A DNA stretch of 64,000 nucleotides from an uncultured virus (IMG/VR IMGVR_UViG_3300020362_000001) (taxonomy: Duplodnaviria > Heunggongvirae > Uroviricota > Caudoviricetes), in the IMG/VR virus record IMGVR_UViG_3300020362_000001. The stretch is one strand, 5' to 3'. Under the pieces are notes generated by a model. The model made no database searches and was not told where the DNA came from. It saw only the letters and a program-made list of their open reading frames with translations. This document shows positions 32,663-55,215 of the stretch, piece after piece; within the stretch, counting starts at the first letter, position 1; each line of letters starts with the position of its first letter. The translations under genes were made by a program, and so were the position numbers.

Positions 32663-33463
32663 ATGATTAGATTGCGTGATATCATATTAGAACAATCCAC
32701 TAACCCTAAGGCACTTATACTAGCTGGAGCTCCCGGAGCAGGAAAATCTTCATTTATAGAAGATGTAGATAATGCTCTAATTTTAAATGTAGATGATTAT
32801 TTCATAAGAAATTTAAAAGATGCAGGAGTATCTTTAGATCTAAAAAATGCGGATGCTGAAGCAAGAAGTAAAGCTGCTAAAGCAATGGCAGCTGCTAATA
32901 AAGAATTTAGACCTATTACTAGAGATATTATATTAGGTAAGAAAAATTTTATATTAGATGGTACTGCTGCTAGTTCAAGACCTACTTTAGCTTTAAAGAA
33001 AGAATTAGAGGATTTAGGTTATGATATTTTAATGGTTTATGTATTTTCTTCACTAGAAAAAGCTTTAGATAGAAATGAAACTCGTTTTCAAAGATCACAA
33101 GGTAAAGATAGAAGTTTATCTCCCGCTATTGTATTACGTACTTGGAACAGTATAACTCAAAATTACGATTTATATAAAAATGAGTTTGGAAATAATTTTG
33201 TTTCAGTTGTTAATGATAAAGCATTAAAAAAAGGAGAACCATTAAAGGATTTAAAAACATTAGTAGATAAGTATGTTGATCCCTACAAACCAACTGATAC
33301 TAAACCAAAAACGGATAAGGAAATAGAGCGATCTAAAAAAAGTAAACAAGAATTAAATAAACAAATTAATGACTTTATTAATTCTGATAAAGTAGAGGAT
33401 ATAAAATCCAATTCTGTATCTAAGGATGAAGCTAAATCAAGGGTAAAACAGTTTTTTTCATGA
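32663..33463 (+). CDS. P-loop kinase (zeta-toxin/Pnk-like) with capsid-targeting-like leader
   Basis: LAGAPGAGKS, NVDD, ILDGT, ALDRN..R; leader MIRLRDIILEQ. Confidence 0.8.
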   Translation: MIRLRDIILEQSTNPKALILAGAPGAGKSSFIEDVDNALILNVDDYFIRNLKDAGVSLDLKNADAEARSKAAKAMAAANKEFRPITRDIILGKKNFILDGTAASSRPTLALKKELEDLGYDILMVYVFSSLEKALDRNETRFQRSQGKDRSLSPAIVLRTWNSITQNYDLYKNEFGNNFVSVVNDKALKKGEPLKDLKTLVDKYVDPYKPTDTKPKTDKEIERSKKSKQELNKQINDFINSDKVEDIKSNSVSKDEAKSRVKQFFS

Positions 33464-35349
33464 ATCCAATAAAGATAGCAAAACAAATAGTTAAAAAACT
33501 ATTAGTAGAACAACTTACTGAAAAGGTATCTCTTTATCCTGGTGCTTTTAAACCACCTCATAGAGGTCATGTTGCTACTATTTTAAGATCTATAGATAAC
33601 GATACAGATAAAGTTATTGTTTTCATATCTACTAAAGAAAGAGAAGATGTTGATGTTGAGGAGGCAATTGAAGTTTGGAATTTATATAAATCTAAAATAC
33701 CAGAATTAGAAAAGGTAGAGATAGTACCTACTCCTACACCCGTTACGGCTGTATATGATTATGCTAAAGATAATCCTTCACATGATATTAGAGCCGTATT
33801 TGGTAAAGGAGAAGAATCTAGGTTTAAATCATTATTAAATAAAGAAAAATATCCTAATGTAGAAGTATTTGATGCAGGTGTAGAAGGTGATTTTTCAGCT
33901 ACCAATTTACGTCAAGCTATAAGGGATGACAATTTAGAAAAAATAAAACCATTTTTACCTGATGGTGTAAACATGGAAAGTTTTTTATTTATATTTAGAA
34001 AGTCCAATGAAGGTTTATACCCTAGATATGATTATAGAAAAGTAAGACAAGTAAGATATAAAGCATCTGATGTTAGAACTAATGATCCCGATGCTTTAGA
34101 AGAAGCCGATCCTAAAAAGGGTACTGGCAAAAAACCTAAAGGTAGTGGTAGAAGATTGTATACAGATGAAGATCCTACTGATACAGTAAAAGTAAAATTT
34201 AGTACTAGACAAGACATAGTAGATACTTTAAATAAAACTTCATTTAAAAATAAATCTCATGCTAGACAATCTCAGGTAATAAATTTAATACATCAAAGAG
34301 TAAGGGCAGCTTTAAGTAGAACTAAAGATCCACTAAAAAAAGCAAGATTAAAATCTGCCTTTGAATATATTAAAAAGCGTAAAGAGGCATCTAAAAAGAA
34401 AACACAAAGATTAAAAAAACAAAAAACTAATGAAGTTATAATTGATGGTATTTTAAAAGAAAAATTATGTAAAAGAGGTTATAATTATATTGCCTCGAGA
34501 AAAAGAAAAGGAGAAAAACATAATCCATTTTTAACTGCTAGAGCCGTAAAAGTTTGTAAAGGCCAAATGAGTGGGACAGATGGTAAACAAAAAAAGGATT
34601 TTAGACCTAAAAAAGGTAAAAAAAGATCTGCTCAAGGAGCTAAACCCGATATAGTTAAAGAAATAGGTGTAAAACTATCTAATTATAGTGGTCAAGTACT
34701 ACCTGGTGATGTAGTAAGAGCACCTAAGGGATTCCCTTTAGGAGGTAAAAAATTAGAAAAAGGATTACAATTAAAAGTAATTAAAAATAGTAGAGAAGGA
34801 GTTAATAGATATAAATTATCTTTAGAAGATCCTAAAACCGGGAAAAAATATTCTGTTAGAAATTTTCAAATGGATGGTGAATATAAAGGTGAAAAATTTC
34901 CTAAGTGGAGTATGGTTAGAAGATCAAAACAAAATATAAAAGAAAATAAATATCTACTTGAAGCTAGATATAAAAAATTTTTAAATGAAGCATGGGAAGA
35001 TGCTAAAGCTAGTGTAGTTAATGAATTTGTTAATTATTGCATGGAATATCTTTCAGTAGATCGTCCTAAATTAAAACTTATTAACTCTAAAGACTATGCT
35101 TATGAAAATCGTAGTTTAGGAGGTTATTCACCTTCTGAAAAAAAGATAATGGTTGTAGTACATAATAGAAATATGGCTGACATTTTAAGAACTATAGCTC
35201 ATGAAATGGTTCACCATATGCAAAATTTAGATAAAAGATTAACACCTACTTCTGGTGAGGATGGATCCCCAGATGAAAATGAAGCTAATTCATTGGCGGG
35301 TGTAATTATGAGGAAGTTCGGGAGGGACAATCCACAAATTTATGAATAA
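33460..35349 (+). CDS. Modular protein: HxGH nucleotidyltransferase, several small basic modules, zincin metallopeptidase
   Basis: YPGAFKPPHRGH...SATNLR; C-terminal LRTIAHEMVHHMQ...ENEAN. Confidence 0.8.
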   Translation: MNPIKIAKQIVKKLLVEQLTEKVSLYPGAFKPPHRGHVATILRSIDNDTDKVIVFISTKEREDVDVEEAIEVWNLYKSKIPELEKVEIVPTPTPVTAVYDYAKDNPSHDIRAVFGKGEESRFKSLLNKEKYPNVEVFDAGVEGDFSATNLRQAIRDDNLEKIKPFLPDGVNMESFLFIFRKSNEGLYPRYDYRKVRQVRYKASDVRTNDPDALEEADPKKGTGKKPKGSGRRLYTDEDPTDTVKVKFSTRQDIVDTLNKTSFKNKSHARQSQVINLIHQRVRAALSRTKDPLKKARLKSAFEYIKKRKEASKKKTQRLKKQKTNEVIIDGILKEKLCKRGYNYIASRKRKGEKHNPFLTARAVKVCKGQMSGTDGKQKKDFRPKKGKKRSAQGAKPDIVKEIGVKLSNYSGQVLPGDVVRAPKGFPLGGKKLEKGLQLKVIKNSREGVNRYKLSLEDPKTGKKYSVRNFQMDGEYKGEKFPKWSMVRRSKQNIKENKYLLEARYKKFLNEAWEDAKASVVNEFVNYCMEYLSVDRPKLKLINSKDYAYENRSLGGYSPSEKKIMVVVHNRNMADILRTIAHEMVHHMQNLDKRLTPTSGEDGSPDENEANSLAGVIMRKFGRDNPQIYE

Positions 35350-35893
35350 AATAAGAGGTACATTAATGGAGTTATTACAAGAAGATCTTGCTAAGGCATA
35401 TGATATTTTTCTTGATATGGACGGGGTTTTAACGGATTTTGAAAGACGTTTTGAACAATTTGCGGGTGTTACACCTGATGAATTTGAAGCTCAAAGGACA
35501 ATTCAAGTAGGCAAGAAAAAAGCTGATGAACAGTTTTGGAATTTAATAGATAAACAAATAGGTGTTCGTTTTTGGGCGGGCATGCCTTGGATGCCACAAG
35601 GAGAAGATTTATATAAACATGTCAAAAAATATAAACCAACCATTTTAACATCTCCTTCAAGAGATGAATCATCTAGGATTGGAAAAGGTGTATGGGTAAA
35701 AAGAAATATGCCGGGGGTACCAGTTAAATTTGGTTTTAAAGCAAGTGGTAAGGCTAAATTTGCCGGACCTAATAAAATTTTAATAGATGATAGAGCGGAT
35801 AATATATCCGCTTGGAAAGCCGCAGGAGGAATTGGTATATTATTTAAATCAACAGAACAAGTAAAAAACGAGTTATCTAAATTAGGGTTATGA
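35342..35893 (+). CDS. HAD-family phosphatase (5'(3')-nucleotidase-like)
   Basis: FLDMDGVLTDF, ILTSP, LIDDR, WKAAGGIGI. Confidence 0.85.
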   Translation: MNKIRGTLMELLQEDLAKAYDIFLDMDGVLTDFERRFEQFAGVTPDEFEAQRTIQVGKKKADEQFWNLIDKQIGVRFWAGMPWMPQGEDLYKHVKKYKPTILTSPSRDESSRIGKGVWVKRNMPGVPVKFGFKASGKAKFAGPNKILIDDRADNISAWKAAGGIGILFKSTEQVKNELSKLGL

Positions 35894-36462
35894 GTGAATC
35901 TCAATTAAATCGTGAATTTTCTAAACGTGACGTTCAGAGAATGCGTAATATAGTTACAGGTAATACTGCTAATCGTACTAGAGTTCAGGCTGGTTATGAA
36001 AAAGAATCTAAGGAATATACTGAAGGTGATATTTGGGAGGAAAATGGTAAACAATGGACTATAAAAGACGGTTTAAAACAAACCGTTACTAAACATGATA
36101 AGTTAAGAGAAATGGTAACTTTACCCTTAACATGTTCATGTGGTAAACCTATGAAGGCCAACAAATTAAATAGAAAAATGTGGGTTATTCATAAAAAATG
36201 TTTTAATTGTGTTATAGAACATGAAACACAATTAAGAGCTAATGGAGGTTATGAAGAATATAAAAAACAATTATTAAATTCTAACAAAGATACATTTGTT
36301 CATGAATATGAACAGGCAGTAAATGCATTTTTAAATGAAGGAGGTGACACATTTGTATCGGAAGCTGGGGATATTGAAAATTGGTCAAAAGCTAAAATTA
36401 ATCCCGAGGTAATCAAGGCATTAAAGGATAATATACAACGATTAAAAGAAATAGAGTTGTAA
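35890..36462 (+). CDS. Hypothetical protein with Cys cluster
   Basis: EGDIWEENGKQWTIKDG; CSCG...CFNC. Confidence 0.7.
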   Translation: MSESQLNREFSKRDVQRMRNIVTGNTANRTRVQAGYEKESKEYTEGDIWEENGKQWTIKDGLKQTVTKHDKLREMVTLPLTCSCGKPMKANKLNRKMWVIHKKCFNCVIEHETQLRANGGYEEYKKQLLNSNKDTFVHEYEQAVNAFLNEGGDTFVSEAGDIENWSKAKINPEVIKALKDNIQRLKEIEL

Positions 36463-36499
36463 TATCTTTATATATTTATTATGGAATAATTCTACAATC

Positions 36500-37099
36500 A
36501 TGAAAAAAACAGAACTTAAAAAAATTATCAAAGAAAACATTGCTGATTGGCTAGCTGAGCGCAGTCAGAATGAAGGAGATAGTGGATACATGGGATACAC
36601 TAAAAAAGCTCCTAAAATCAAAATGGAAGATCAAATTGGTGAAATGTATTATGTTTCTAGACCATCTAAAAAATCAACTATGGAAGAACTAGTTGGTAAA
36701 GGTGATGTATTTGAATTTGCATCTTTAGGTTTAACTAAAGAAGATGTATATGGTATTTACAAATCAGAAAATAAGGCAAATTCAGTAGCCGGAAAACTTA
36801 TTAAGGAAAGAGATGCTAAATTAAAAGAAACCTATAATATGGGTAAGAAAAAACTTAGCATGATGGAAACTTCAATTGATGAAATTAAAAAAGAAATTGA
36901 AGGTAAAATGTCTGAGGCAACGGCTAATCCAGATATGAGAGAATCTTTAACTGCCGAATCTAATAGTTTAATGGAAAAACTTTCTATGTTAGAAGCACAA
37001 GTTGAAAGATTAAGAGAAGCATTAGAACAAGAAGGATTACGTTTTGAGAAAAAAACTTCTAAAAAAGATAAAAAAGAAGACGAAAAAGAAGAAAAATAA
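36500..37099 (+). CDS. Coiled-coil protein with capsid-targeting-like leader
   Basis: MKKTELKKIIKE; ATATTTAT at 36472-36479. Confidence 0.7.
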   Translation: MKKTELKKIIKENIADWLAERSQNEGDSGYMGYTKKAPKIKMEDQIGEMYYVSRPSKKSTMEELVGKGDVFEFASLGLTKEDVYGIYKSENKANSVAGKLIKERDAKLKETYNMGKKKLSMMETSIDEIKKEIEGKMSEATANPDMRESLTAESNSLMEKLSMLEAQVERLREALEQEGLRFEKKTSKKDKKEDEKEEK

Positions 37100-37102: not shown

Positions 37103-38116
37103 ATGGACAAGCTTAAACTCAGATATCTTATCCGAGAGGCTATAGAAAACGTTGTTAATGTTTCATCAAAGTTCTCTGTAGGTGATAAGGTAACTACAGT
37201 AGATGGTGATACCGCTAAAGTTACTATGGCGGAACACCCCTTTTATACTGTTGAGTTAGAGGAAACCGGAACTACAAAATCTTTTAACTTTAAAGATTTA
37301 GCTCCATTTCAAGAAAAAGAAATTTCTAAAACATCTGAGGGCATTACACTACAAGAAGGAGTAAATGCCTCTCCTGGTTTAATGTTCCATCAACAACATA
37401 ATAAACCACTATCAGAATGTGTTTTTAGAATTGGTTCTAAGTCATATGTAGATTTTTATGCAGAGGCAAGAGAATTATTCAACGAAGGAGTTTTAAAAAT
37501 AAATGAAGGTGATAAAATTTTAATTAGAAATACGGATATTGGTGAATATGGAATATTTGAAGGTGAGAAAGTACCCTTAGACATTCCTTTTATTAATGAA
37601 GATAAAGATACTAATATAGTAATGTATCTTATTCAACTTAAACAAGAACTTAGAAAAAAAGGGTATAAAGTTAAGGTAGGAAGACCTTCTAAATTTGATA
37701 ATAGAATTGGAATACAATATGATGAGGATAATGAACGTGATCTAGATGGATTAATATCTACTTTGGATGATATGCTTGGTAAACAAGGATATAGATTATT
37801 TTCTGATACTAATCAACCTATGTTAGAAGCTGAATTTAGAGGAAAAAATGTTAAATTAAATTCTCCTAAACGTGGTGGTTCTAAGGCTTATTATGTTTAT
37901 GTTAAAAACCCTAAAACAGGTAGAGTTAAAAAAGTATCATTTGGTTCTGGAGGATTAAGAGCAAAGATTAATAACCCCAAAGCACGTAAAGCATTTTCTG
38001 CACGTCATAATTGTCCTAATAAAAAAGACAGAACAAAAGCAGGATATTGGTCATGTAATTTACCAAGATATGCAAAGCAACTTGGTTTAGGTGCTAATAA
38101 AAACACTTTTTGGTAA
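37103..38116 (+). CDS. Modular protein (SH3-like module ... basic ARHxC/YWSC module)
   Basis: Leader MDKLKLRYLIRE; FSVGDKV; C-terminal KKVSFG...ARKAFSARHNC...AGYWSC. Confidence 0.75.
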   Translation: MDKLKLRYLIREAIENVVNVSSKFSVGDKVTTVDGDTAKVTMAEHPFYTVELEETGTTKSFNFKDLAPFQEKEISKTSEGITLQEGVNASPGLMFHQQHNKPLSECVFRIGSKSYVDFYAEARELFNEGVLKINEGDKILIRNTDIGEYGIFEGEKVPLDIPFINEDKDTNIVMYLIQLKQELRKKGYKVKVGRPSKFDNRIGIQYDEDNERDLDGLISTLDDMLGKQGYRLFSDTNQPMLEAEFRGKNVKLNSPKRGGSKAYYVYVKNPKTGRVKKVSFGSGGLRAKINNPKARKAFSARHNCPNKKDRTKAGYWSCNLPRYAKQLGLGANKNTFW

Positions 38117-38117
38117 A

Positions 38118-38378: not shown

Positions 38379-38502
38379 TTTTATTTATATAACGATATTA
38401 GTAGGGGTCGCTGTAGGTGGCTTAGTTGTTGCTTTAAGAAATAAATCCAAAGCTGGTTGCTGCGGAACAAATTGTGGATGTCATGAAAATAGAACAAATT
38501 AA
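38371..38502 (+). CDS. Small TM plus Cys-rich protein (FeoB-associated Cys-rich-like, 43 aa)
   Basis: Hand-translated MLSFIYITILVGVAVGGLVVALRNKSKAGCCGTNCGCHENRTN. Confidence 0.6.
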   Translation: MLSFIYITILVGVAVGGLVVALRNKSKAGCCGTNCGCHENRTN

Positions 38503-39892
38503 AAAAATATTTGAGGAAGACGAAAGTCTAAAATATGCTTTAGCTACTAATATAGCTAAATATGGACGTCCTCAATCTAAAAAATCTGATAAACCCGCTA
38601 AACTAACTAAAAGTTTAGAAAAAAAAAGAGAAAAAGCAGTAAAAGACCTAAAAAAATCCATGGATGAAGGAAAAATGAAATCAGGTACATATGCTGGTAG
38701 AGCAGTTGTTGTTTATATGAATGGACCTGAAACAGAATGGAAAGTAAAATTTACAAATAGTGGTAAAGTTGTTGATTATATAGATTTAATGGCTAATCTT
38801 AAATTTGATGATGGGACTACTTATCAAGATTATTTAGGTGTTAATGTAAAAGAACAAGATATGGGTTCCCCATTTCCTGGTCCTAATTTTGATAATAAAG
38901 GATATATAGCCGCTAGAAAGCTTATTGATAGATTAAGAGCAACTACATTTAGAAAATTAAATGATGATGAATTGGAAGAATTTAGAAAAACAATAGCTGA
39001 TGCTTTTGATATGACATTAAAGGAAGCTTTTAGTGGTTTCATCAAAGGAGAACCAGAAGCTCCAGATTCTACCCCATTTAAACCAACAGGATCAGTATCT
39101 CAATTTCAAGAAGATTTAAGAGCATTATTTGGTAAATTTAAAGATGATTTAAGAAATCCTGATTTTATAAGAGGAGTAGGTGAAATAATGGTTAATTGGA
39201 AATCACTTTTAAGAAGTCAATTTGATGAAGGTGATACTTACGAAAAAATGGCCGCTAAGGGTAAAAAAGCTGGTAATTTAAAGCAAGGTACTGTTAGAAA
39301 AAGATTAGGTATTCCTAAGGATAAAAAAATTCCATTAAGTTTAATTAATAAGGAATTATCCCGTATGAAAAAAATGGATAAGGATGATGATAAAAAAGGA
39401 GTTCAATTAGGAGATAAAAATCAAAAATATTATAAAGCATTACAATTAGCTAAAACATTAAAAACTACAACTAATTTAAATGAAGATTTAAGTACTCTTA
39501 AAAGATATAAAGCCCAATTAGATAAATTATATGGTCCTCAATTAAGATTTATTATAAATAATGATCCTAATAATCCTGAAAGAAGTCGTATAGATGTAAG
39601 AGGTTCACAACAAGAATTATTGAATTTTGGATCCGAAATGCATGGTACAGAAATGGGTGATTATGAATTTTTCCATGTTGATGATATGGATAGAGGAGAA
39701 ATGGTAAGCTTGGTACGTTCTGATAGCATAATGCGTGGTGGAAGTGCCCCAATAGATAAAATTTCAGAAAAAAAAGATAAAACAGATCGTTGTCTTAGAA
39801 TAGCAAGACAAAAAATGCCTAAAACATCTGCGTACCGTTCTGGACTAATTGTAAAGTGTAGAAAAGGAATGATATGGAAGAAAAGAAAGTAA
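38483..39892 (+). CDS. Modular polyprotein-like protein
   Basis: Start MKIEQIKKIFEE (ATG 38483); unrelated modules; C-terminal DRC...SAYRSGLIVKCRKG. Confidence 0.75.
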   Translation: MKIEQIKKIFEEDESLKYALATNIAKYGRPQSKKSDKPAKLTKSLEKKREKAVKDLKKSMDEGKMKSGTYAGRAVVVYMNGPETEWKVKFTNSGKVVDYIDLMANLKFDDGTTYQDYLGVNVKEQDMGSPFPGPNFDNKGYIAARKLIDRLRATTFRKLNDDELEEFRKTIADAFDMTLKEAFSGFIKGEPEAPDSTPFKPTGSVSQFQEDLRALFGKFKDDLRNPDFIRGVGEIMVNWKSLLRSQFDEGDTYEKMAAKGKKAGNLKQGTVRKRLGIPKDKKIPLSLINKELSRMKKMDKDDDKKGVQLGDKNQKYYKALQLAKTLKTTTNLNEDLSTLKRYKAQLDKLYGPQLRFIINNDPNNPERSRIDVRGSQQELLNFGSEMHGTEMGDYEFFHVDDMDRGEMVSLVRSDSIMRGGSAPIDKISEKKDKTDRCLRIARQKMPKTSAYRSGLIVKCRKGMIWKKRK

Positions 39893-40197
39893 AAAAATAT
39901 ACTTCCGAATTTGATCAGGATATAAGAGCTTTTATGAGGGAACTTATAAAAGAATCTTTACGTAACTGGTTTAAAAAAGAAAAATGGGTAAGGATAGATA
40001 CTCAAGGAAATATTACTGGTCCTTGTGGTACAATGAAAAAGGGTAAAGCAACTACTCGTTGTTTACCTCAAGCTAAAGCCAGAAGTTTAACTAAAGCACA
40101 AAGAGCAGCTACTGCAAGAAAAAAAGTAAGAGGATCTAGAAAAGGTAAGCAGTTTGTAAAAAATACTAAAAAGGCAACTGTAAGACTAAGAAAATGA
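39874..40197 (+). CDS. Basic protein, DUF5872-like
   Basis: ESLRNWFKKEKWV...RCLP.AKARSLT...GKQFVKNT. Confidence 0.7.
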   Translation: MEEKKVKKYTSEFDQDIRAFMRELIKESLRNWFKKEKWVRIDTQGNITGPCGTMKKGKATTRCLPQAKARSLTKAQRAATARKKVRGSRKGKQFVKNTKKATVRLRK

Positions 40198-40699: not shown

Positions 40700-41494
40700 A
40701 TGAGCAAATTTAATTTAAAACAATTTATTACAGAAAATAAAATAGGCCCCTATGCTAAATTAGATGAAGCAGGCCCTGGTTTTGCACATGATTGTGCAGC
40801 ACATGTAGTACATGAAACCTATGGTCATGGAATTTGTTTGGAAGGCCAACATACTTTAGTAGAAAATAAAGAAGGAAATCATGTTGTAACACATTATGAT
40901 GTATTTTTTAAAGAAGGAAGTAAAACAGTAGAAAATATTCCTGTTGAAGAATTAGAAATTATTACTGAAAGTCATCATTCTCATGGTAAAAATAAAAAGA
41001 AAAATGAAAGACTAGATCCAGTGGGTAAAGAAGATGGTGACATTGATAATGATGGTGATAAAGATGAAACTGACAAATATTTGGCTAATAGAAGAAAGGC
41101 AATAGCTAAAGCAATAGCTGATAAAGAAAAAACCGATACTGAAAAAGATGCTAGAAAAGCTAAAGGTATGATGGAAGGAGATTTAGATGTAGGTCACCAA
41201 GATGATGAACCCGGAATGTTAAAAAATAAATTATTTAGAGCAGCTAAAATGGCAGCTATGCTATATAAAAAAGTTGATAAATATGATAAAATGGGTGGTG
41301 AAGTTGATTTTCCAAGTTGGTGGCAAAATAAAATCAATAAATCTCAAGATATGTTACAATCAGCTTATGATTATCTTGACGGTGAAGAAAATGTTGCTAA
41401 ACTAGATGCTATGGCTGAAAAAAAAGTTGAAGTTGATGATGAAACTGAATTTAAACTAAACCTAAGACATCTATTAGATAAACATGCCCAATAA
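40700..41494 (+). CDS. Modular head-associated protein
   Basis: Leader MSKFNLKQFITE; HDCA..V.H module; LDPVGKEDGDIDNDGD module; FPSWWQNKI module; ATATTTAT at 40675. Confidence 0.75.
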   Translation: MSKFNLKQFITENKIGPYAKLDEAGPGFAHDCAAHVVHETYGHGICLEGQHTLVENKEGNHVVTHYDVFFKEGSKTVENIPVEELEIITESHHSHGKNKKKNERLDPVGKEDGDIDNDGDKDETDKYLANRRKAIAKAIADKEKTDTEKDARKAKGMMEGDLDVGHQDDEPGMLKNKLFRAAKMAAMLYKKVDKYDKMGGEVDFPSWWQNKINKSQDMLQSAYDYLDGEENVAKLDAMAEKKVEVDDETEFKLNLRHLLDKHAQ

Positions 41495-43466
41495 AGAAGA
41501 ATTCATACAACTTTTAGAGCAAGAGGTAGAGGATTTTATCCAAACCCAAGCTGAAAAGATTGTCTCATTTGAAGATGATCCTAAAGGTTATATTCTACAA
41601 AAATATCCTTCATTAAAAGGCACTCTACAAGACTTAATGACTACTAGTTTTGATGAGTACATTACAGGTATTTACGTAATGGCTCCCAAACCTACTACAT
41701 TTAAAATATTACTTCATAATGGTCAACAATTTTTCCTAATTTATGCTAAAGATTCTTATATAGCTAAAATACAAGGTAAAAAATATTATTTATTAAATTT
41801 AGGAGAAGAAGAATATGCTATTAAAGCTATAGCTGATTTATTAACTATGGGTATGCCCCCTGGAGCTAAAGGTCCAGATGATGAAGAGGAAAATGATACT
41901 ACTGCGGGCTCAGATGATACTCCGGATGCAGAACCAGCTGATGATGCGGGAGGAGATGAGGAAGATTTATCTGAAAATAAAGAAAAAGATAGCGAAACAG
42001 ATGATTATGGTCGTCCTTTTGTAGATCCTAAAGGTTCAAGAACATATATGGATCCAGATGAAATGTCACCAGCGGCTAGGATAAAAAGAATGATGGGAGA
42101 AAAAAGAATTAAAATTATTAGAGAAAATAAGGTTACAAAAAAAAAACCTATTAGGTTTAGAATTATAAAAGAAGGTTTAACTCCTGCTGAATTAAGTAAA
42201 GATGCTACTCTTCCTGGAGGTGTAAAAACTCCACGTATTGAAATTCTAATTAAAAAAATCCAAAATAACGAAGAATTAGAGTTAACTGATGGAAGTAAAT
42301 TTATAGTAGATAATAAAGAAGAAGTATTATCTCAATTACAAGGTAAAACTAGAATAACTCAAGCTATTAATTTAGTAGATAAAGATGGTAATCAAATTAC
42401 TACTTCTAAATTAAAGAAAACTGCTGAATTTGGTGGTGGTGGAGGAATGAGAGGTGGAAGTGATTTAACCGCTAAAGCTGAATCTGCTCAATGTATAGTA
42501 AATGAAATTAGATATTCTAAGGGTAAATTAACACCCGAAGATGTTAATGATAAAAATATTCAAGATACTAAAGGAAAAGTTCAAATAACCGATTTTGAAG
42601 GTGCAGCCGAATTACTAAAAACCAATACTGGGTGGGTTGATTCAAGTGTTAGTATTGCTAATGAATTGGCTTCTAATTATTCTGGACCTTTTATACAAAA
42701 TAGAGGTTCAGATTGGGTAAAAACATTAGAAGCTGCTGTAAAACCTAAATTACAAGAAGTAGGAATTAAAGATATTAATAAATGGAGCCCTGCTGATATA
42801 TGGATGGTGGCCCCAGATGAAATGAGTATTACTTGGCCTAATTCATTAGGTGATATAAATGCATTATTATTAGAAAAATATAATGAAGGTAAAATAATAG
42901 GTGTATCACTTAAAAAAGCAGGTAAAGAAGCAGCATTACAAGTATTTAACGATCCAACTATAGAAACTACTAGAGTAAAATATAAAGGTATTGATCCTAA
43001 ACCTAATGCAGCTAAAGCATTAATTTTATTTGATGATTCTTCAATAGAATTTAGAAATTTTAGTGGTCTATCTGGTTTTATGGGTGAAATTATAGGTAAA
43101 AAAGCGGCCGGAGGTAAAGTAGGATACTCTATAATTAAAAAAGCATTAAATGATAATGGGATTGAATTATCTAATCCCACTGAAATAAAAGACCAAGTAG
43201 TTGATAATGATCCTAATTTTAAATCTAAATTTAAAACATTATGGAATTCAACAGAAGGTTTAGATAGTGGTGATTTTGAAAAAAACTTTGATAATAAAGA
43301 TAAAACCCCAAATCAAAATTTACTATATAGAATATCAAAATATTTAGCATTAGAAGTAGTTAATGCTATAAACAACTCAGAGGACCCTGACGAAATAGTT
43401 AATGATTTAATAAACTATGCGGCATCAAGTACAAAAGATAGTGCCATATTTGTTAAGGCCTTTTAA
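41484..43466 (+). CDS. Modular protein with C-terminal restriction-endonuclease-like domain
   Basis: KTAEFGG, AESAQC, KWSPADIW...IIGVSLKK. Confidence 0.65.
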   Translation: MPNKEEFIQLLEQEVEDFIQTQAEKIVSFEDDPKGYILQKYPSLKGTLQDLMTTSFDEYITGIYVMAPKPTTFKILLHNGQQFFLIYAKDSYIAKIQGKKYYLLNLGEEEYAIKAIADLLTMGMPPGAKGPDDEEENDTTAGSDDTPDAEPADDAGGDEEDLSENKEKDSETDDYGRPFVDPKGSRTYMDPDEMSPAARIKRMMGEKRIKIIRENKVTKKKPIRFRIIKEGLTPAELSKDATLPGGVKTPRIEILIKKIQNNEELELTDGSKFIVDNKEEVLSQLQGKTRITQAINLVDKDGNQITTSKLKKTAEFGGGGGMRGGSDLTAKAESAQCIVNEIRYSKGKLTPEDVNDKNIQDTKGKVQITDFEGAAELLKTNTGWVDSSVSIANELASNYSGPFIQNRGSDWVKTLEAAVKPKLQEVGIKDINKWSPADIWMVAPDEMSITWPNSLGDINALLLEKYNEGKIIGVSLKKAGKEAALQVFNDPTIETTRVKYKGIDPKPNAAKALILFDDSSIEFRNFSGLSGFMGEIIGKKAAGGKVGYSIIKKALNDNGIELSNPTEIKDQVVDNDPNFKSKFKTLWNSTEGLDSGDFEKNFDNKDKTPNQNLLYRISKYLALEVVNAINNSEDPDEIVNDLINYAASSTKDSAIFVKAF

Positions 43467-43488: not shown

Positions 43489-44022
43489 ATGGACAACTTT
43501 AACTTTAAAAAATATTTAGCGGAAGGTCGCTTATTAAAGGAACAATTAAAGGATATAAAAGATATTATAACTAAAGCGGGAATTAATCTTGATGATGGTA
43601 TCCTAGGTGGTGTTGGATCAGGTGGTGCTGGTTATTATGATTTTTTATCTGATAGAATAGTTGGCCCCCAAGGTGGTAAATTTAACGAGGAAGAATTTAG
43701 CAAATGGTATGATAATTTTTCAAAAGAAGACTTTGCGGAATTTAGATATGAAAAAGAATTTTCTGAAGAAAATGAAGATGGAGTTAATTATGACATGATA
43801 GGACAAATTAATCCTGGTATTTATGCTGTTGGTAATATGGGTTATGCCCAAATTCATGATAATGGTGATATTCAATTATTTGCTACACCTACATTAGGTG
43901 ATGATGATATTACAAAAGAACTAGAACCAATCTTTACTATGGATTCTAGCGGTAATGCAGTTCCAGCAATGGATAGAGAAGAAGTAAAATCTAAATTACA
44001 ACAAGGATTTGTAATCTTGTAA
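43489..44022 (+). CDS. Acidic protein with capsid-targeting-like leader
   Basis: MDNFNFKKYLAEGRLLKEQ; ATATTTAT at 43466-43473. Confidence 0.7.
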   Translation: MDNFNFKKYLAEGRLLKEQLKDIKDIITKAGINLDDGILGGVGSGGAGYYDFLSDRIVGPQGGKFNEEEFSKWYDNFSKEDFAEFRYEKEFSEENEDGVNYDMIGQINPGIYAVGNMGYAQIHDNGDIQLFATPTLGDDDITKELEPIFTMDSSGNAVPAMDREEVKSKLQQGFVIL

Positions 44023-47231: not shown

Positions 47232-47918
47232 ATGCAAGATAACTTTAGCGTAAAAAATTGGAAAAATACTGTCTTATACGAACAAGACTTTAAACAAGAA
47301 TTAGACATTTACGGATATCAAACTAAACATTTTGATTTATGTCCGGGTGCTCAAAATTTGTATAAAAGAATAATGGCTGGTGATTTTACTGATGGTATGC
47401 CTTCTGTTAAAGAACAAGATACTATAATTACATTAGCTAAACTACATGATGCATTATTTGGTATGGAAAAAATTGCTCTTTCTTCTAAAGATGGAGTAGA
47501 TAAAGAATTTGCTAGTAAAGCTCAAGGTATAGCTGATAAAATAATGGATATATCTCAAAGCTTAGATCTAGTAGATGAACATGGCTATATACAAAACCAT
47601 GTAGATATTATTAGAGATAAAGTAAATGAAATGGCTATTGTTCTCCCAGAACAAGAAGATGATATTGAATTAGAAATTCCGGGGGATGAAAGCAGTGCCA
47701 CTGTCGATAAAAAAGTACAAGCAAAGGCTACTAGACAAGATAAAATAATTAAAGATTTTCAACGAATTCAGAAACAAATGCAAACTCATCTTGAGCTTTA
47801 TAAAACATCCGAATCCGAAGAAAATAAAAAAACTGCATTACAAATGCTAAAAAACCTTACTCCTGAATTTCAGGCAGCTAAGAAAAAATATGAAAAATTA
47901 AAAGGTGTCAAAGTCTAA
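47232..47918 (+). CDS. Modular protein with capsid-targeting-like leader
   Basis: MQDNFSVKNWKNTVLYEQ; YQTKHFDLCPGA module; ATATTTAT at 47210. Confidence 0.7.
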   Translation: MQDNFSVKNWKNTVLYEQDFKQELDIYGYQTKHFDLCPGAQNLYKRIMAGDFTDGMPSVKEQDTIITLAKLHDALFGMEKIALSSKDGVDKEFASKAQGIADKIMDISQSLDLVDEHGYIQNHVDIIRDKVNEMAIVLPEQEDDIELEIPGDESSATVDKKVQAKATRQDKIIKDFQRIQKQMQTHLELYKTSESEENKKTALQMLKNLTPEFQAAKKKYEKLKGVKV

Positions 47919-50177: not shown

Positions 50178-52121
50178 ATGGCAGATACTTCATTATTTGG
50201 TAGATTAAGAAGATTATTTTCTACAGATGTAGTCATTAGAAACGTAGGGGGGAACCAATTAAAAGTAATTGATTCTAACCAAATACAATCTTTAGGACAA
50301 TTACAAACAAATTCACTATACGATAGATTTAATAAATTGTATAGTACAACAGGTGGGCTGAATTATAATACAATGCAGCAAACCAATTTCCCATCCACTA
50401 GAATTCAACTATACACGGATTACGAGGCAATGGATACAGATTCTATTGTTGCTTCTGCGTTAGATATAGTATCAGATGAATCTACTCTAAGAAATGATAT
50501 GGGTGAGGTATTACAAATTAGATCTGCTGATGAAACTGTACAAAAAATATTATATAATTTATTCTATGATGTATTAAATATAGAATTTAATTTATGGTCT
50601 TGGACTCGTAATATGCTAAAATATGGTGATTTTTATTTAAAATTAGAAATATCCGAAAAATTTGGTATATATAATGTAGTACCTTTTTCTTCTTACACTA
50701 TACTAAGAGTAGAAGGAGGTGATCCTAAAAATCCATCTGATGTAAAATTTAAATATGATCCTAGTTATTCAGTATCCGAAAATCCATTAGGTTTTCAACA
50801 AGTTTCTCCTGGAATGGGTGTTAATACTGGTGATGAAGTAATTTTTGATAATTACGAAATGGCTCATTTTAGATTATTATCAGATTTTAATTATCTTCCT
50901 TATGGTAGATCATATCTTGAACCAGGTAGAAAAGTTTGGAAACAAACTACACTAATGGAGGATGCAATGTTAATTCATAGAATTGTAAGAGCCCCAGAAA
51001 AACGTACTTTCTTTGTAAATGTAGGTAATATACCACCTAATGAGGTAGAAACTTATATGCAAAGAATGATCAATAAAATGAAAAAAACACCTTATATTGA
51101 TCCTAATTCTGGTGAATACAATTTAAAGTTTAATATGCAAAATATCTTAGAGGATTTTTATATTCCTGTAAGAGGTGGAGATGCAACTACTAGAATAGAA
51201 ACTACAAAAGGATTAGATTATGCTGCTATAGAAGATGTAACTTATTTAAGAGATAAATTATTTGCAGCACTTAAGGTTCCAAAAGCTTATTTAGGTTATG
51301 AGGGTGATATTGAAGGTAAAGCTACATTAGCCGCGGAAGATATTAGATTTGCTAGAACAGTAGAACGTATCCAAAGAATATTAGTTTCTGAATTAACTAA
51401 AATAGCACTAGTTCATTTATATGCACAAGGGTATGATGGAGCTGCATTAACTAATTTTGAACTTTCATTAACTACTCCTTCTATAATTTATGATCAAGAA
51501 AGAATAGCATTACTAAAAGAAAAAGTTGATCTAGCTCAACAAATGATGGAAACTAAATTAGTACCTAGTGATTGGATTTATGATAATATATTCCACTTTA
51601 GTGAAGATCAATATCAAGAATATAGAGATTTAATAATCGAAGACCAAAAACGACAATTCCGTAGAGAACAAATATCGGCTGAAGGGAATGACCCAGCAGA
51701 ATCCGGCGAAGCGTACGGTACACCACATGCCCTAGCATCCTTATATGGAGCAGGAAGATACCCAGGAAGTAAGGGAGTACCTAAAGGATATAGTGTAGAT
51801 GATCCCGAGTTTCCTTCACAGGCTCTAGATGGTTTAGGTCGTCCTAAGGAAAAAGCTTCCGATTATGGAACACAAGATGGTAATTTAGGTAAAGATACTA
51901 TAGGCCAAGCAAGAATGAAATCAAATTTAGGGAGTGAAGATAGACCTGGTATGCCAAATTACAAAAGTGGTTCACCTCTAGCTTTAGAAAATATAAATAC
52001 CAAAGCTATATACGCTAAAAACGAAAAAAGTCTAAAAAATATGTTTCCTAAACAAAAAGTATCACTTTTTGAAGGTGAAAAACTATTGGATGAAGACCAA
52101 ATTCGTGAGGAAGTTAAATAA
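50178..52121 (+). CDS. Portal protein (gp20-like)
   Basis: LMEDAMLIHRIVRAPEKRTF.VNVGNIP, EDFYIPVRG, ALKVPK, EDIRF. Confidence 0.95.
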   Translation: MADTSLFGRLRRLFSTDVVIRNVGGNQLKVIDSNQIQSLGQLQTNSLYDRFNKLYSTTGGLNYNTMQQTNFPSTRIQLYTDYEAMDTDSIVASALDIVSDESTLRNDMGEVLQIRSADETVQKILYNLFYDVLNIEFNLWSWTRNMLKYGDFYLKLEISEKFGIYNVVPFSSYTILRVEGGDPKNPSDVKFKYDPSYSVSENPLGFQQVSPGMGVNTGDEVIFDNYEMAHFRLLSDFNYLPYGRSYLEPGRKVWKQTTLMEDAMLIHRIVRAPEKRTFFVNVGNIPPNEVETYMQRMINKMKKTPYIDPNSGEYNLKFNMQNILEDFYIPVRGGDATTRIETTKGLDYAAIEDVTYLRDKLFAALKVPKAYLGYEGDIEGKATLAAEDIRFARTVERIQRILVSELTKIALVHLYAQGYDGAALTNFELSLTTPSIIYDQERIALLKEKVDLAQQMMETKLVPSDWIYDNIFHFSEDQYQEYRDLIIEDQKRQFRREQISAEGNDPAESGEAYGTPHALASLYGAGRYPGSKGVPKGYSVDDPEFPSQALDGLGRPKEKASDYGTQDGNLGKDTIGQARMKSNLGSEDRPGMPNYKSGSPLALENINTKAIYAKNEKSLKNMFPKQKVSLFEGEKLLDEDQIREEVK

Positions 52122-52153: not shown

Positions 52154-53002
52154 ATGAAAATAAAACATAATAAATACAAGAATACTGGTATTCTGTTTGA
52201 ACTACTAGTAAGAAAAATTACTGCTGATACACTTTCTAGTGGTAATTCTAAAGCCGCTTCATTAGTAAAAAAATATTTTACTAAAACTTCATTGGCGGAC
52301 GAAAATAAATTATATCAAACGGTTAATAATTCAATAGCTTTATCTGAAAGTAAAGCGGATTCTGTTCTTTCTACTGTTTTGGATTTATCTAAAAAGTTAG
52401 ATAGAGATAAACTTGCCAAAGAAAAATATAATTTAATTAAAGAAATTAAAAATAGTTTTGATTTAAATGATTTTTTTCAAGCTAAAATTAAAAATTATAA
52501 ATTATTAGCATCAACTTATATACTATTTGAATCAGTTAATAATAAAGGATTTGCTAATCCCGAATCTATTATTACTTCTAAAATTACTATATTAGAACAT
52601 ATTACTTCTACACCTGATTCTAAAATGTCTTTATCACCATTAGTTGAGGAATTAATGTCTTTGGATAAAGGTACACGTGCGCTTACATATAAGATAATGT
52701 TAGAAAAATATAATACTAAATTTGATGGTCTTTCTAAGGACCAAAAAGAAGTATTAAAAGAATACATAAATAGTGCTACAGATGCTCCCAAACTTAAAGA
52801 ATTTTTGAATTCTAAGTTTAAGAGTATATCTACTAGGCTGAAAGAAAACGTAGATAAAATAGAGGAGCCGGCACTAAAAATAAAAATCCAAGAAGTTATA
52901 AATTTAATTGATCCTATTCTAGAATCTAGAAAGTTAAAAGATGATCACCTAGTTGCGCTACTACAATATCTTGAACTTTCCAATGAAATAGAAAAAGCAT
53001 GA
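52154..53002 (+). CDS. Head-module hypothetical protein
   Basis: MKIKHNKYKNTGILFELLVR; between portal and protease; ATATTTAT at 52127. Confidence 0.7.
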   Translation: MKIKHNKYKNTGILFELLVRKITADTLSSGNSKAASLVKKYFTKTSLADENKLYQTVNNSIALSESKADSVLSTVLDLSKKLDRDKLAKEKYNLIKEIKNSFDLNDFFQAKIKNYKLLASTYILFESVNNKGFANPESIITSKITILEHITSTPDSKMSLSPLVEELMSLDKGTRALTYKIMLEKYNTKFDGLSKDQKEVLKEYINSATDAPKLKEFLNSKFKSISTRLKENVDKIEEPALKIKIQEVINLIDPILESRKLKDDHLVALLQYLELSNEIEKA

Positions 53003-54318
53003 AATTAAAAATAAAAGGATTGAATAAAGAAATGAGCACCACAGGTACTGGTGCTTCATTTACACCAGGTACTGGAGCTCAATATGCTACTCCTAAAGCT
53101 TTTAAAATAAAAAAAGATGAAATAGGAGAACCTTTTACTAAACCTAATCCTTCTATCCCTAATAGAAAATCTAAATTTATGGATTATAAACAGATTTTTG
53201 AGGATAATATGGCAGAATTAAAATTCAACCCTATTAAAGATTTTACTGATAGTCAGGCATGGGCTGGTGATAATACAGGATATGATATGGATACGCAAGA
53301 TGCAGCATCCGTTTTAGAATTAGCTAAAGTTTCTAAGGGAGGTCAGTTTAAAGTGGGCGATGTAGAAACATCTAAGGGAGTTAAATATACTGTAACTAAA
53401 ATAGATCCAACAACTGGTCAAATTTCTTGGAAAATAGATTATGTACCTGCATTTGATTCAGTATTTAAAAAATTTGATGCTTTAAAGGATGCAATGGCTG
53501 ATTTAGATAGAAGAACTAATGATTCTACTATAGATAATATTGCTGATAGAATGAAAGGATTATTTAACCAATATAGAACATATATTAGAAAAAATTATCC
53601 TGAAGAATATAGTAAATTTCAAACGGCTGAAAATATAGATCCTAAATCACAGGCTAAACATAAAGGAAAATCTGCTCCATTTGGTTCAGCTTATGAACCT
53701 GTTACTAAGGAAAATATTGATAGAGTAGCAGGTGGTATTCCTTATAAAATTGAAAATGGAAATGCTATTATTTCTATGCCTTTACCCGATGATACTAAAG
53801 AACGTATTATTAAAAGAGCTAAAGCAAATGGATATTTAGCTAAACCTAATATGGGTGGTGGTGTTACTATTTTTAAAGAATCTCAATTATCAGAAGAATT
53901 AGGTGTTTCTAAAAGATATTTAACTAGAATTGCGGATGAAGTAGGTGAAAGTATTTTTGCCCAAATGATTTTAAATCTTAGAGATGAAAATGTACAAGAT
54001 GAAATTGTAGATGCTTTTGAAGACCAATACCCAGTAGTACGTGATTTTAAAAATAAATTAAATGAAGCACGTTACAGTCAATTTAAAACTGAAACAAAAT
54101 TAAGAACTCCTACAGAACAAATACATAGAGCTGTTAGAGAAATTAGAAGAAAAATAGATGAAATAGTTAAGGTAGTAGGACATACTGAAAGAATGAAATC
54201 TGAATTAAAAGATAGTAATGAAGGTATGTCATATCTTAAAAGAACCCGTAATGCTATTAACACTATATCCGAAAAGTTACAAGAATTAAATAATAGAATT
54301 AAAGGATTAACAGAGTAA
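52999..54318 (+). CDS. Modular polyprotein-like head protein
   Basis: Short modules separated by x-x-E junctions (NKE, IFE, VLE, TAE, TKE, LNE). Confidence 0.7.
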   Translation: MKLKIKGLNKEMSTTGTGASFTPGTGAQYATPKAFKIKKDEIGEPFTKPNPSIPNRKSKFMDYKQIFEDNMAELKFNPIKDFTDSQAWAGDNTGYDMDTQDAASVLELAKVSKGGQFKVGDVETSKGVKYTVTKIDPTTGQISWKIDYVPAFDSVFKKFDALKDAMADLDRRTNDSTIDNIADRMKGLFNQYRTYIRKNYPEEYSKFQTAENIDPKSQAKHKGKSAPFGSAYEPVTKENIDRVAGGIPYKIENGNAIISMPLPDDTKERIIKRAKANGYLAKPNMGGGVTIFKESQLSEELGVSKRYLTRIADEVGESIFAQMILNLRDENVQDEIVDAFEDQYPVVRDFKNKLNEARYSQFKTETKLRTPTEQIHRAVREIRRKIDEIVKVVGHTERMKSELKDSNEGMSYLKRTRNAINTISEKLQELNNRIKGLTE

Positions 54319-54465
54319 ATGGCAGCTGCAAGAAGATCAGTAAATGTTTTTGCTCATAGGGAAAAAAGTAAAAAAAAAAGACCTGGTGTTCATGCTAAAA
54401 GTAAAACATCAAAATTAAAAAGTAGTAAAAACTATAGTAAAAAATATAGAGGACAAGGACGATAA
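54319..54465 (+). CDS. Small basic protein ending KxYRGQGR (48 aa)
   Basis: Hand-translated MAAARRSVNVFAHREKSKKKRPGVHAKSKTSKLKSSKNYSKKYRGQGR. Confidence 0.75.
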   Translation: MAAARRSVNVFAHREKSKKKRPGVHAKSKTSKLKSSKNYSKKYRGQGR

Positions 54466-54477
54466 ATATTTATATAC

Positions 54478-55215
54478 ATGACAACAACAGACTTATACAA
54501 AAAACTGAAAGCTGGCGAAATTACAGAACAGAAGTTCTTGTATGAAGTTCGTCGTGATCCAAATTTACCTTTCATAACTAATGTAAATAATTTTAAGGAT
54601 TCAGTACAAATCTTAAAAAATAAAGGTATAATTAAAGAAGAAAAACAAGAAGTAGAAATTTTTGCTAAAACTATTGATATGGTTAATCCATATGAATATA
54701 ATAGAGGTATGAATTTTGAATTAGATGTAGTTATTGATTCTGTAGGTAATAAATTAATAGACGGAGCTACAGGAAATAATGTTGAAGAAATAACTTCTGA
54801 TCAAATTTTAAAAGCACAAAAGAAAGTACTTAAAAATCTTACCAAAGATCCTTATTTTTATCAAAAGAAATTAATTCCAAAAATGGAAGGTGAAAGTGAA
54901 GATGTAGTAGAAGTAACTCCTAAATCCGTTGAAGCATTAAAAAAGAAAGCCGGTAAAATAATTCGTGAACATGGTGAAAACTATGATGAAGTTTCTAAAG
55001 TAATGGAAGAAGATATAGAAGAACTAGGTAGAACTAGAGATGCTATATATGAAAAATATGCTCAAAAATACGAAGTAGATGTTAACGAATTAAAAGATAG
55101 ATTAGAAGCATATAAATCCCAAAAAGAAGCCACTATTAATGTTAAAACTAAAGCTGATATTCCATCAAATCTAAAAGATGATGATGTTGTTAATGTAGGC
55201 GATATGGATATGTAA
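54478..55215 (+). CDS. Head-module hypothetical protein (possible prohead core component)
   Basis: ILKNKGIIKEE, KNLTKDPYFY; ATATTTAT at 54466. Confidence 0.7.
   Translation: MTTTDLYKKLKAGEITEQKFLYEVRRDPNLPFITNVNNFKDSVQILKNKGIIKEEKQEVEIFAKTIDMVNPYEYNRGMNFELDVVIDSVGNKLIDGATGNNVEEITSDQILKAQKKVLKNLTKDPYFYQKKLIPKMEGESEDVVEVTPKSVEALKKKAGKIIREHGENYDEVSKVMEEDIEELGRTRDAIYEKYAQKYEVDVNELKDRLEAYKSQKEATINVKTKADIPSNLKDDDVVNVGDMDM

Follow-up and report, generated by a model that had tools for sequence, protein, structure and literature searches.

Introduction

In a review (PMC9026906), the internal proteins of bacteriophage T4 are described as bearing propeptides, 10-19 residues long, by which they are directed to the core, and fusions to such a capsid-targeting sequence (CTS) are packaged. 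The same review states that the T4 protease gp21 cleaves after L/I-x-E and bears a site of its own, LIE-9, near its N-terminus, while an excerpt of PMC8442874 gives the T4 CTS as MKTYQEFIAE. For the giant phages phiKZ, 201phi2-1 and SPN3US, many head propeptides are reported there to be removed after Glu by a diverged gp21-like protease; these propeptides have redundant cleavage sites, and a large protein mass is ejected (PMC9026906). Here we describe short N-terminal leaders of a comparable kind in a 64,000-nucleotide stretch of DNA from an uncultured virus (IMG/VR record IMGVR_UViG_3300020362_000001), called the window below. Between the genes for primase/exonuclease and terminase, about ten late genes appear from their predicted N-termini to carry such leaders, as do two or three genes of the head module. 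By analogy with T4 we regard these as T4-CTS-like prohead-targeting propeptides, with a probability of roughly 60%.

In the full-text literature searched, the CTS was discussed for T4, its engineering and the giant phages only, and no paper with the leader strings described here was found. A link of the CTS with cyanophages was met only in the review PMC9026906.

A late gene block with shared N-terminal leaders

Judged by its genes, the source phage is a distant T4-like myophage of Flavobacteria, and the window is its late region. All 75 non-nested open reading frames (ORFs) of at least 50 amino acids (aa) lie on the plus strand, and the G+C content of the window is 30%. The nearest cultured phage is Flavobacterium phage vB_FspM_immuto (immuto), whose capsid protein is 56.5% identical, and the order of primase, exonuclease, leader block and terminase is the same in immuto and the window. 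A complete 166-kb relative (G007) has DNA about 80% identical and is collinear with window positions 5917-59726.

The initial annotation had proposed about 14 genes with a shared leader, and all 14 N-terminal strings were found at the coordinates it gave. The genes are listed below under their positions, with one extra candidate; they are named in the text by the start of the leader-bearing frame. The late motif is ATATTTAT, and a slash marks the end of a leader or site.

32663..33463, plus strand: P-loop kinase-like protein (Zeta_toxin/AAA_33); leader MIRLRDIILE, nt 32663-32692; late motif at 32639
33460..35349, plus strand: mosaic protein with a nucleotidyltransferase, basic modules and a C-terminal HEMVHH domain; leader MNPIKIAKQIVKKLLVE, nt 33460-33510
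35342..35893, plus strand: 5'-nucleotidase (NT5C/HAD; phrog_2643 E 6.6e-28); leader MNKIRGTLMELLQE, nt 35342-35383
36500..37099, plus strand: 199-aa protein with no function assigned; type-A leader MKKTELKKIIKE, nt 36500-36535; late motif at 36472
37103..38116, plus strand: 337-aa mosaic protein with a basic C-terminal module (phrog_7595); type-A-like leader MDKLKLRYLIRE, nt 37103-37138
38474..39892, plus strand: 472-aa mosaic protein with a small basic C-terminal module; leader MKIEQIKKIFEE, nt 38483-38518, if the start is ATG 38483
39874..40197, plus strand: 107-aa very basic protein, isoelectric point (pI) 11.0; 27-residue leader ending ELIKE, nt 39874-39954
40700..41494, plus strand: 264-aa protein; type-B leader MSKFNLKQFITE NKIGPYAKLDE, nt 40700-40735, perhaps to 40768; late motif at 40675
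41484..43466, plus strand: 660-aa protein with an N-module, acidic and basic linkers and a 420-aa C-domain; leader-like MPNKEEFIQLLE, nt 41484-41519
43489..44022, plus strand: 177-aa acidic protein, pI 4.3; type-B leader MDNFNFKKYLAEGRLLKE, nt 43489-43542; late motif at 43466
47232..47918, plus strand: 228-aa protein, weak candidate; MQDNFSVKNWKNTVLYE, nt 47232-47282; late motif at 47210
52999..54318, plus strand: 439-aa head-module protein between portal and protease, loose candidate; MKLKIKGLNKE/MSTTG, nt 52999-53031
54478..55215, plus strand: 245-aa head-module protein just before the protease; likely site KFLYE(23), nt 54478-54546; late motif at 54466
13278..13736, plus strand: 152-aa protein beside baseplate wedge genes; type-A-like MKLEAFRKVIRE, nt 13278-13313; late motif at 13266
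3622..3879, plus strand: extra candidate, 85-aa basic protein, pI 9.8, starting MIKHSELRKLSIE; late motif at 3589, 26 nt upstream

The leaders lie at the extreme N-terminus and, as predicted from the reading frames, are amphipathic, mostly basic peptides of 10-27 residues. They belong to a small number of interchangeable families, with aromatic/aliphatic-(I/L)-x-Glu at the end. The residue at P3 is I or L in 12 of the 14 listed leaders (F in 38483, N in 52999), in agreement with the proposal that they end in the L/I-x-E cut by T4 gp21.

Two families were recognised in the window. Type A, with the consensus MKKxELKKIIKE, comprises 36500, 37103, 38483 and 13278, and its helix pattern runs beyond the Glu (MKKTELKKIIKENIADWL). 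Type B, with the consensus MxNFNLKKYLxE(G/N)(K/R)L..E, comprises 40700 and 43489 (MDNFNFKKYLAE). Both are plainer in immuto, where type A is represented by MKKSELVKLIKE, MKKSQLRQIIKE and MKKSQLREIIRKE and also heads a 73-aa gene between portal and protease, while type B, as MENFDLKKFLVENKLT.NSK.L.E, occurs four times, on unlike proteins.

A 9-residue matrix was built from the immuto leaders alone and scored on the window, with the 4 internal matches among 18,710 window positions as background. Five of the 75 N-termini reached a score of at least 9, against 0.21 expected: 40700 (22.6, the best), 36500 (17.1), 3622 (13.0), 33460 (9.7) and 43489. Scores from 5.5 down to 1.2 were obtained for 38483, 37103, 13278, 32663, 54478 and 35342, and scores below 0.3 for 41484, 47232, 39874 and 52999. 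In the reverse test, with a matrix from the window leaders and immuto as the target, 11 of 224 ORFs scored 10 or more, against 0.63 expected from the internal rate. Scoring of the immuto leaders on G007 gave 6 of 202 ORFs, with 0.53 expected; four of these lay inside the syntenic 101-107 kb block and the other two were evident false matches (a HAD motif and the terminase). By these three tests, the leaders are not scattered among replication or tail genes.

Statistics within the window depended on how the motif was defined. The loose form [ILVMFY]-x-E occurs at a frequency of 0.027 per residue in the window proteins, or once per 38 residues, and its presence within the first 25 residues of 44 of the 75 ORFs is not above chance. 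Two hydrophobic residues followed by x-E and ending at residues 8-27 were found in 11/20 ORFs of the block 32663-47918 versus 13/55 elsewhere (Fisher p 0.014). When N-terminal 11-mers were compared all against all, a score of 24 was reached by 10 of 2775 pairs versus 1 of 2415 internal-segment pairs, and this comparison singled out a core made up of the type-A and type-B leaders. As a loose rule, hydrophobic-x-E near the N-terminus thus fits too many ORFs to discriminate; the core set lies far above chance. C-termini ending in hydrophobic-x-E were also considered as a signal, and were dropped: they occur on 2 of 75 window proteins (33460 and 52999), not above expectation, and on 13 of 224 immuto proteins, none of them cargo genes.

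Taken gene by gene, the sequence support appears strong for 36500, 40700 and 43489. For 32663, 33460, 35342, 37103, 38483, 39874 and 41484, the predicted leaders are supported by junction conservation, swaps or extensions. The remaining four, 47232, 52999, 54478 and 13278, seem poor candidates, and the proposed membership of about 14 genes holds for about ten and is weak for these four.

The late motif ATATTTAT places the leader genes in their transcriptional setting. Of its plus-strand copies, 18/22 lie at most 40 nt upstream of a start codon, compared with 4.7% of positions qualifying. Its total in the window, 33, is no enrichment over the 25 +/- 4.4 of shuffled sequences. The statement that many leader genes follow this motif is correct for the 7 of 14 listed genes that it directly precedes. 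It heads the operons starting at 32663, 36500, 40700, 43489 and 47232, and stands before the portal gene, a head-tail adaptor-like (connector) gene and head-core genes. It is also found before gene 22939, which leads a run of function-unassigned genes, and before gene 59732, which immediately precedes that of a tail-fibre-like protein. These positions show the leader genes in what are, by their motifs, late-type transcription units beside the head module.

Portability of the leaders

For the type-B scan of IMG/VR, the core N-F-[DN]-L-K-K-[YF]-L-x-E was back-translated to a degenerate DNA pattern that included no start codon. At least 130 stretches matched this pattern, whereas a control with its codon classes permuted matched 6. 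Among the matches listed, a start codon or Met lay at most three residues upstream in 142/145, and the 139 downstream parts with a length of 40 residues or more formed 92 single-linkage clusters at E<1e-5, which confirms that the leaders are portable across unrelated proteins, as the initial annotation had supposed. Also among the matches listed, the 141 30-nt sequences comprised 96 different versions, every codon having synonymous alternatives. Since the codons vary synonymously while the residues stay, the constraint acts on the peptide.

A second type-B scan left residues 11 and 12 free. Glu-12 was present in 128 of 137 distinct N-termini, and a further hydrophobic-x-E occurred by residue 30 in 128/137, mostly at 17/18 or 23/24. 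The type-A core KK[ST]EL[KR]K.IKE gave 63 matches in 50 stretches, of which 58/63 stood directly after Met, and type-A genes were often two or three small ones in tandem. At the level of sequence comparison, these results show the leaders as portable, almost exclusively N-terminal modules that are conserved at the protein level. A tblastn search of a 24-residue leader against a phage collection gave no match. A word-indexed search of 5.8 billion sequences with residues 1-40 of 43489 returned 5 orthologues, in a setting where leader-only matches cannot reach significance.

Protease, scaffold and capsid

The head module adjoins the leader block and consists of the following genes in addition to 52999 and 54478.

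48567-50150, plus strand: large terminase (Pfam Terminase_6N; phrog_2 terminase large subunit)
50178-52121, plus strand: portal protein of the T4 gp20 family (Pfam Portal_T4 E 2.1e-67); late motif at 50154
52154-53002, plus strand: head-module gene without a family match
55217-55837, plus strand: prohead protease of the T4 gp21 family (Pfam Peptidase_S77 E 7.6e-28; phrog_207 E 2.2e-50)
55966-57213, plus strand: acidic scaffold-like protein, pI 4.1 (by position and similarity to immuto)
57239-58873, plus strand: major capsid protein of the Gp23 family (Pfam Gp23 E 9.6e-77)

The head is assigned as T4-like because the Portal_T4, Peptidase_S77 and Gp23 families are present and because of the capsid identity to immuto (56.5%). 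The protease matched Peptidase_S77 at 97.8 bits against a cut-off of 27, with residues 28-175 on profile positions 43-195 of 198. GELDHPES and GISSRG(M/T)GS, which we take to hold the catalytic residues, are conserved between the window and immuto proteases. The protease begins MAKNLLIE. All the sites reported earlier in this module are present: the capsid protein has QLLE(10) and LVVE(60), and the protease has LLIE(8). The candidate maturation site of the capsid protein, QLVVE(60)/ASSTG (immuto QIVSE/ANVTG), lies 18 residues before the Gp23 profile match, which starts at capsid residue 78, profile position 3.

The protease family accompanied the leaders in other contigs. PF03420 was found in 7/8 type-B and 2/5 type-A contigs examined (9/13), the four misses being records 22-61% complete, and every tagged contig examined that was at least 63% complete encodes Peptidase_S77. 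In G004, G006 and G016 a tagged gene adjoins the protease. A further contig, G015 (the contig of L171), has a Peptidase_S77 match at 122029-123549 that falls in two parts within one 570-aa frame; this frame adjoins three type-A-tagged genes, and the split may be due to an insertion or a fusion.

The scaffold-like protein 55966 shares 60-62% identity at both ends with the immuto gene preceding the capsid gene. It contains an internal helix, DELKDIIKD, ending at residue 253 (immuto DDLKDLIRD), which is one of the four internal matrix matches of 9 or more in the window. Its C-terminal tail is SRMQKLAGII, and SR(M/W)QKLAGII is copied at cargo N-termini in relatives: cargo genes of immuto (111675-112139) and L020 (16321-18774) start with such tail copies, MKKQILSEQFRRMQKLAGIITE and MGYSITKETLRFQKLAGI. 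No window gene other than the scaffold itself carries the tail sequence. On this pattern, the scaffold-tail copy would be a third kind of tag, and the leaders may join the scaffold by mimicking its own contact helices. A complex prediction that paired the N-terminal 45 residues of 36500 with residues 236-415 of the scaffold, run without controls, scored 0.02 against a mark of 0.34 and is neutral on binding.

Individual leader-bearing genes

Compared with cellular family profiles, the enzyme domains have N-terminal extensions of about 20 residues to which the profiles have no counterpart. In 32663, Zeta_toxin (E 6.7e-12) is matched from residue 11. All full-length distinct N-termini listed for its homologues have M-I-x-L-x-x-[IL]-[IL]-x-E, except one: the kinase L027_7693 begins with the type-B leader MDNFDYKKYITEGRLLKE/ASNKPKAIIL, where its near relative L028 has MISLINILKE/AVDQPKAIIL. 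L048 resembles L027 in this respect.

In 33460, the CTP_transf_like, coaD and NMNAT models begin at residue 24-25, corresponding to profile position 1-3. The leader is present in the window, L005-L013, L016-L018, L021, L022 and L024, and is lacking in L019, L020, L023, L027 and L028, which begin directly at the GxFxPxHxGH strand. Close relatives range from 319 to 864 aa in total, with a variable middle. One Glu-linked module boundary is clear, NIKE(495), where L011 and L008 hold a 228-residue insert; module joints after Glu throughout the protein were considered and set aside, the other boundaries being blurred. Residues ~500-629 contain a HEMVHH (HExxH, zinc-protease-like) motif in all close relatives, and no family model matched there.

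The NT5C profile begins at residue 22 of 35342, and in all 26 sequences of this family the DMDGV motif is preceded by an extension, in which an LLxE-like site is mostly present. In four contigs (L020, L026-L028), the nucleotidase domain is fused behind the nucleotidyltransferase. At 46255-47209, in the same region as the tagged enzymes, there is a leaderless pair consisting of an AAA_28 kinase and a nucleotidyltransferase (46255; CTP_transf_like E 6.8e-13); the profile match of this nucleotidyltransferase begins at residue 5. The two sets may work in different places, the tagged enzymes packaged and the leaderless ones in the cytoplasm.

Unlike leaders were found at the same junction in several families. 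Orthologues of 36500 retain MKK.EL.K[IL][IL][KT]E/NI.DWL, and the leader core also heads unrelated proteins in viral contigs. Residues 81-169 and 236-337 of 37103 correspond to an entire 185-aa immuto protein, which is without the first 80 residues, and the homologue L016_13591 bears MDLKKLIKE in place of the type-A-like leader. The leader of 38483 starts at an in-frame ATG three codons inside the ORF, the alternative start being GTG 38474; its junction ..FE(E)/DESLKYALATN is retained in L008, L010, L012 and L013 behind leaders of unequal length. Residues 430-469 of the same protein correspond to residues 17-54 of immuto 111184, directly after the immuto leader AYIENIIKE. In the 39874 family, the homologues have unlike leaders (MDINRLQEIISE, MNRLLLRKIIKE, MITEDRVIEIVQE and MKIPADINNIVKE), with lengths of 12-27 residues across the family, and all of them end in hydrophobic-x-E/SLRDWFKKE.WVRI; phrog_23735 begins at residue 28.

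The C-terminal module of 40700 and an LDPVGKEDxDIDNDG module are both present within the 841-aa immuto protein 114006. This recurrent module, LDPVGKED.DIDNDG..D.TD.YL.NRR, occupies residues 104-135 of 40700, has an EF-hand-like DxDxDG loop and was found in several cargo proteins, including immuto 114006-116531; cargo proteins have odd PHROG matches because of it. Residues 5-123 of 41484 align to residues 683-790 of immuto 114006, right after an internal type-A-like KSELKEIMLE. The immuto protein thus fuses the 40700 and 41484 modules, with KSELKEIMLE exactly at the joint.

The C-domain of 41484 (residues 240-660) belongs to a very abundant viral family and has 237 relatives/protein clusters at E<=1e-5, mostly stand-alone proteins of ~479 aa. 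These have another N-module and the junction (L/I)xE/TALSPSELSKDATL, where the window has RIIKE/GLTPAELSKDATL; the N-module of the stand-alone relatives is a distinct conserved one of ~50 residues, FDKFF.KFAYKF.KGYPDM. The AlphaFold2 model of the C-domain is a confident one, with a mean predicted local distance difference test score (pLDDT) of 86.3. Foldseek against the PDB gave no match at E<=1e-3, and in VIA-align wide the top Z was 3.9 (PX domains), with MspI at 3.1, none convincing among solved structures. Atlas gave leads to restriction enzymes at 0.84-0.85, and the fold is left unassigned.

BLAST of 43489 in the relatives gave leader-only matches, all on unrelated proteins: 18-20 residues at 75-89% identity in L013_12720 and L010_11154, and 49 positions at 45% in the L027 kinase. 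The start of 47232 resembles that of a 75-aa immuto gene, 125241 (MENNFDIHKWQAKFLKE), which is flanked by the protease and scaffold genes; no homologues of 47232 were found in the relatives' loci compared, and its matrix score is low. For 52999, which has no family match, the immuto counterpart is MKKSQIVKAVQEVLEE/MSTTG, and P3 is Asn, not I/L. After Glu11 this protein (MSTTGTGASFTPGTGAQYA) closely resembles the capsid protein after Glu60 (ASSTGTGGTFTAGTGEQYA), and it looks as if 52999 were copying the N-terminal arm of the mature capsid protein. 54478, also without a family match, shares 40% identity with immuto 123578 over its N-terminal 58 residues; the site AGEITE(17), originally proposed, gives way to KFLYE(23), which is conserved in immuto and aligned to HFIAE(23). 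The immuto counterpart of 13278, MKLDLLKKLIKE, occupies the same place as in the window.

The charge of the cargo is mixed. 39874 has a pI of 11.0 and 33460, 37103 and 38474 contain basic modules, while 40700, 41484, 43489 and 47232 are acidic (pI 4.3-5.5). Lipoprotein-type signal peptides were noted in the small ORFs 40194-40664 (…FFSISCGS), amid the tagged block, and 3207-3377 (…FSIFGCYS). Immediately ahead of the terminase, the leader block is interspersed with lysis-type genes (45614-45937 and 47905-48565), which code for a coiled-coil membrane protein resembling LysB/Rz and a partner with a signal peptide.

Discussion

By analogy with T4, we infer core binding, cleavage, virion retention and injection of the tagged proteins. 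Through its leader, a freshly synthesised protein would have an affinity for the scaffold core while the prohead assembles, and the shell would close around it. The gp21-type serine protease (55217-55837) would then cut after the Glu, freeing the mature protein inside the head, where it would stay with the DNA and from which it may exit with the DNA at infection.

Leaders that target the prohead core could also belong to assembly or core parts that are degraded and expelled, like T4 gp22, gp67 and gp68. Leader-like starts do occur inside the head module (52999 and 54478; immuto 123355 and 125241), the scaffold itself contains a type-A-like helix, and most T4 core proteins are cut up and exit the head, according to PMC9026906. 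Folded enzymes such as the kinase, nucleotidyltransferase and nucleotidase, and small domains of pI 11.0, would however be unlikely scaffolds, and a cargo set that is highly variable among close relatives is ill-suited to essential assembly parts; we consider this explanation unlikely. It also seems improbable that the leaders are uncut N-terminal amphipathic helices with another role, such as oligomerisation, docking to a phage or host structure, or membrane association. Such helices would suit the type-A pattern that extends past the Glu, the type-A-like start of 13278 within the baseplate block, and the distant homologues of the 41484 N-module that keep the start without the Glu. They would not suit the retention of the free Glu-12 in 128/137 type-B leaders, the I/L at P3 and the second site downstream, nor the exchange of unlike leaders at the same junction and the tagged genes adjoining the protease in three contigs.

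We give very little credence to the view that the similarity is a by-product of composition (AT-rich DNA, K/E/I/L-rich N-termini, A-rich codons after ATG, which favour translation) or of DNA recombination linkers, and would serve no purpose in the protein. MKK starts are frequent in AT-rich genomes and the loose motif is met in 44/75 ORFs; set against this are the permuted-codon control (6 stretches versus at least 130), the synonymous variation at each leader position with constant residues, and the N-terminal location of 142/145 matches listed with a pattern that had no start codon. This explanation is largely refuted for types A and B and possible for 52999, 47232 and 13278.

Several points weigh against the prohead-targeting interpretation itself. 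Within the window alone, the enrichment is modest (p 0.014), and the matrix does not separate several listed leaders from background. The co-occurrence with Peptidase_S77 is uncalibrated against the base rate of this family in large IMG/VR contigs. Distant homologues of the 41484 N-module have a type-A-like start, MKKSELRDKIKMLVQ, with no Glu at the expected place, so a type-A-like start need not bear the Glu site. The membership of 13278 is uncertain, as it lies among baseplate genes with no link to the head module. The T4 CTS scores 0.6 on the leader matrix, with FIAE alone contributing; since it matches only in the last four residues, the leaders would be analogous to the T4 CTS without being homologous to it in sequence. 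The type-B core, searched with at most two mismatches in P-SSM2, Syn9, HTVC008M, S-PM2 and Mel-JY01, gave 2 matches versus 2 control matches and is thus absent from these cultured cyanophages, the pelagiphage and Mel-JY01, which makes published virion proteomes of no use here. No virion proteome of immuto or Mel-JY01, and nothing else on Mel-JY01, was found in the literature searched. The injected arsenal much larger than that of T4, as suggested by the initial annotation, could equally consist of degraded and expelled core proteins.

A broader proposal may tentatively be made, to which we give less than even odds. In T4-like phages of flavobacteria and of uncultured marine origin, a small set of interchangeable "zip codes" (type A, type B and, in relatives, the scaffold-tail copy) might load a large, fast-evolving repertoire that is injected with the DNA. 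This repertoire might span 90 or more unrelated protein families, among them kinases, nucleotidyltransferases, nucleotidases and DNA-binding modules of a very basic kind. Should this be true, the genome of an uncultured phage would directly reveal its injected "effector" set. If the leaders act in the manner of the T4 CTS, a mechanism of three or four proteins in one model phage would become a general modular cargo system of abundant marine phages, and a sequence rule would predict the proteins of the first seconds of infection, among which one would look for roles in anti-defence and take-over. Natural portable tags would then also be at hand for loading foreign proteins into non-coli phage capsids. 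The cultured relative immuto carries both tag families, which makes the hypothesis directly testable.

Among known systems, the T4 CTS of IPI, IPII, IPIII and Alt is the closest. There, as in the window, short N-terminal leaders on unrelated proteins end in aromatic-(I/L)-x-Glu, and are accompanied by a gp21-family protease, a T4-type portal, scaffold and capsid module, late expression, and cargo that is partly small and basic. Unlike T4, the window genome has at least two or three leader families, and type B is longer (18-24 residues) with two Glu sites. The cargo set is also far larger here and includes enzyme domains and mosaic multi-module proteins, known here from their genes alone. The giant phages phiKZ, 201phi2-1 and SPN3US are likened to the window phage by their processed propeptides cut after Glu. 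Their cleavage motif, S/A-x-E for the phiKZ type (PMC9026906), differs from that of the window phage, in which both the leaders and the capsid LVVE have I, L or V at P3. Their genomes and capsids differ from those of the window phage. To our knowledge, no short shared portable leader has been reported for them. In the Dar system of phage P1, large enzymes are loaded into the head via an N-terminal signal (DarB, which needs DarA/Hdf) and delivered with the DNA; unlike the window phage, P1 has another head lineage and protease, and is not known to carry a common short tag on dozens of families. Encapsulins likewise use a short portable peptide that sends unrelated cargo inside an HK97-fold shell. 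Their cargo peptides are usually C-terminal and uncleaved, and the shells are without portal, DNA or protease, whereas the leaders described here are N-terminal and would be cut by a gp21-type protease inside the head.

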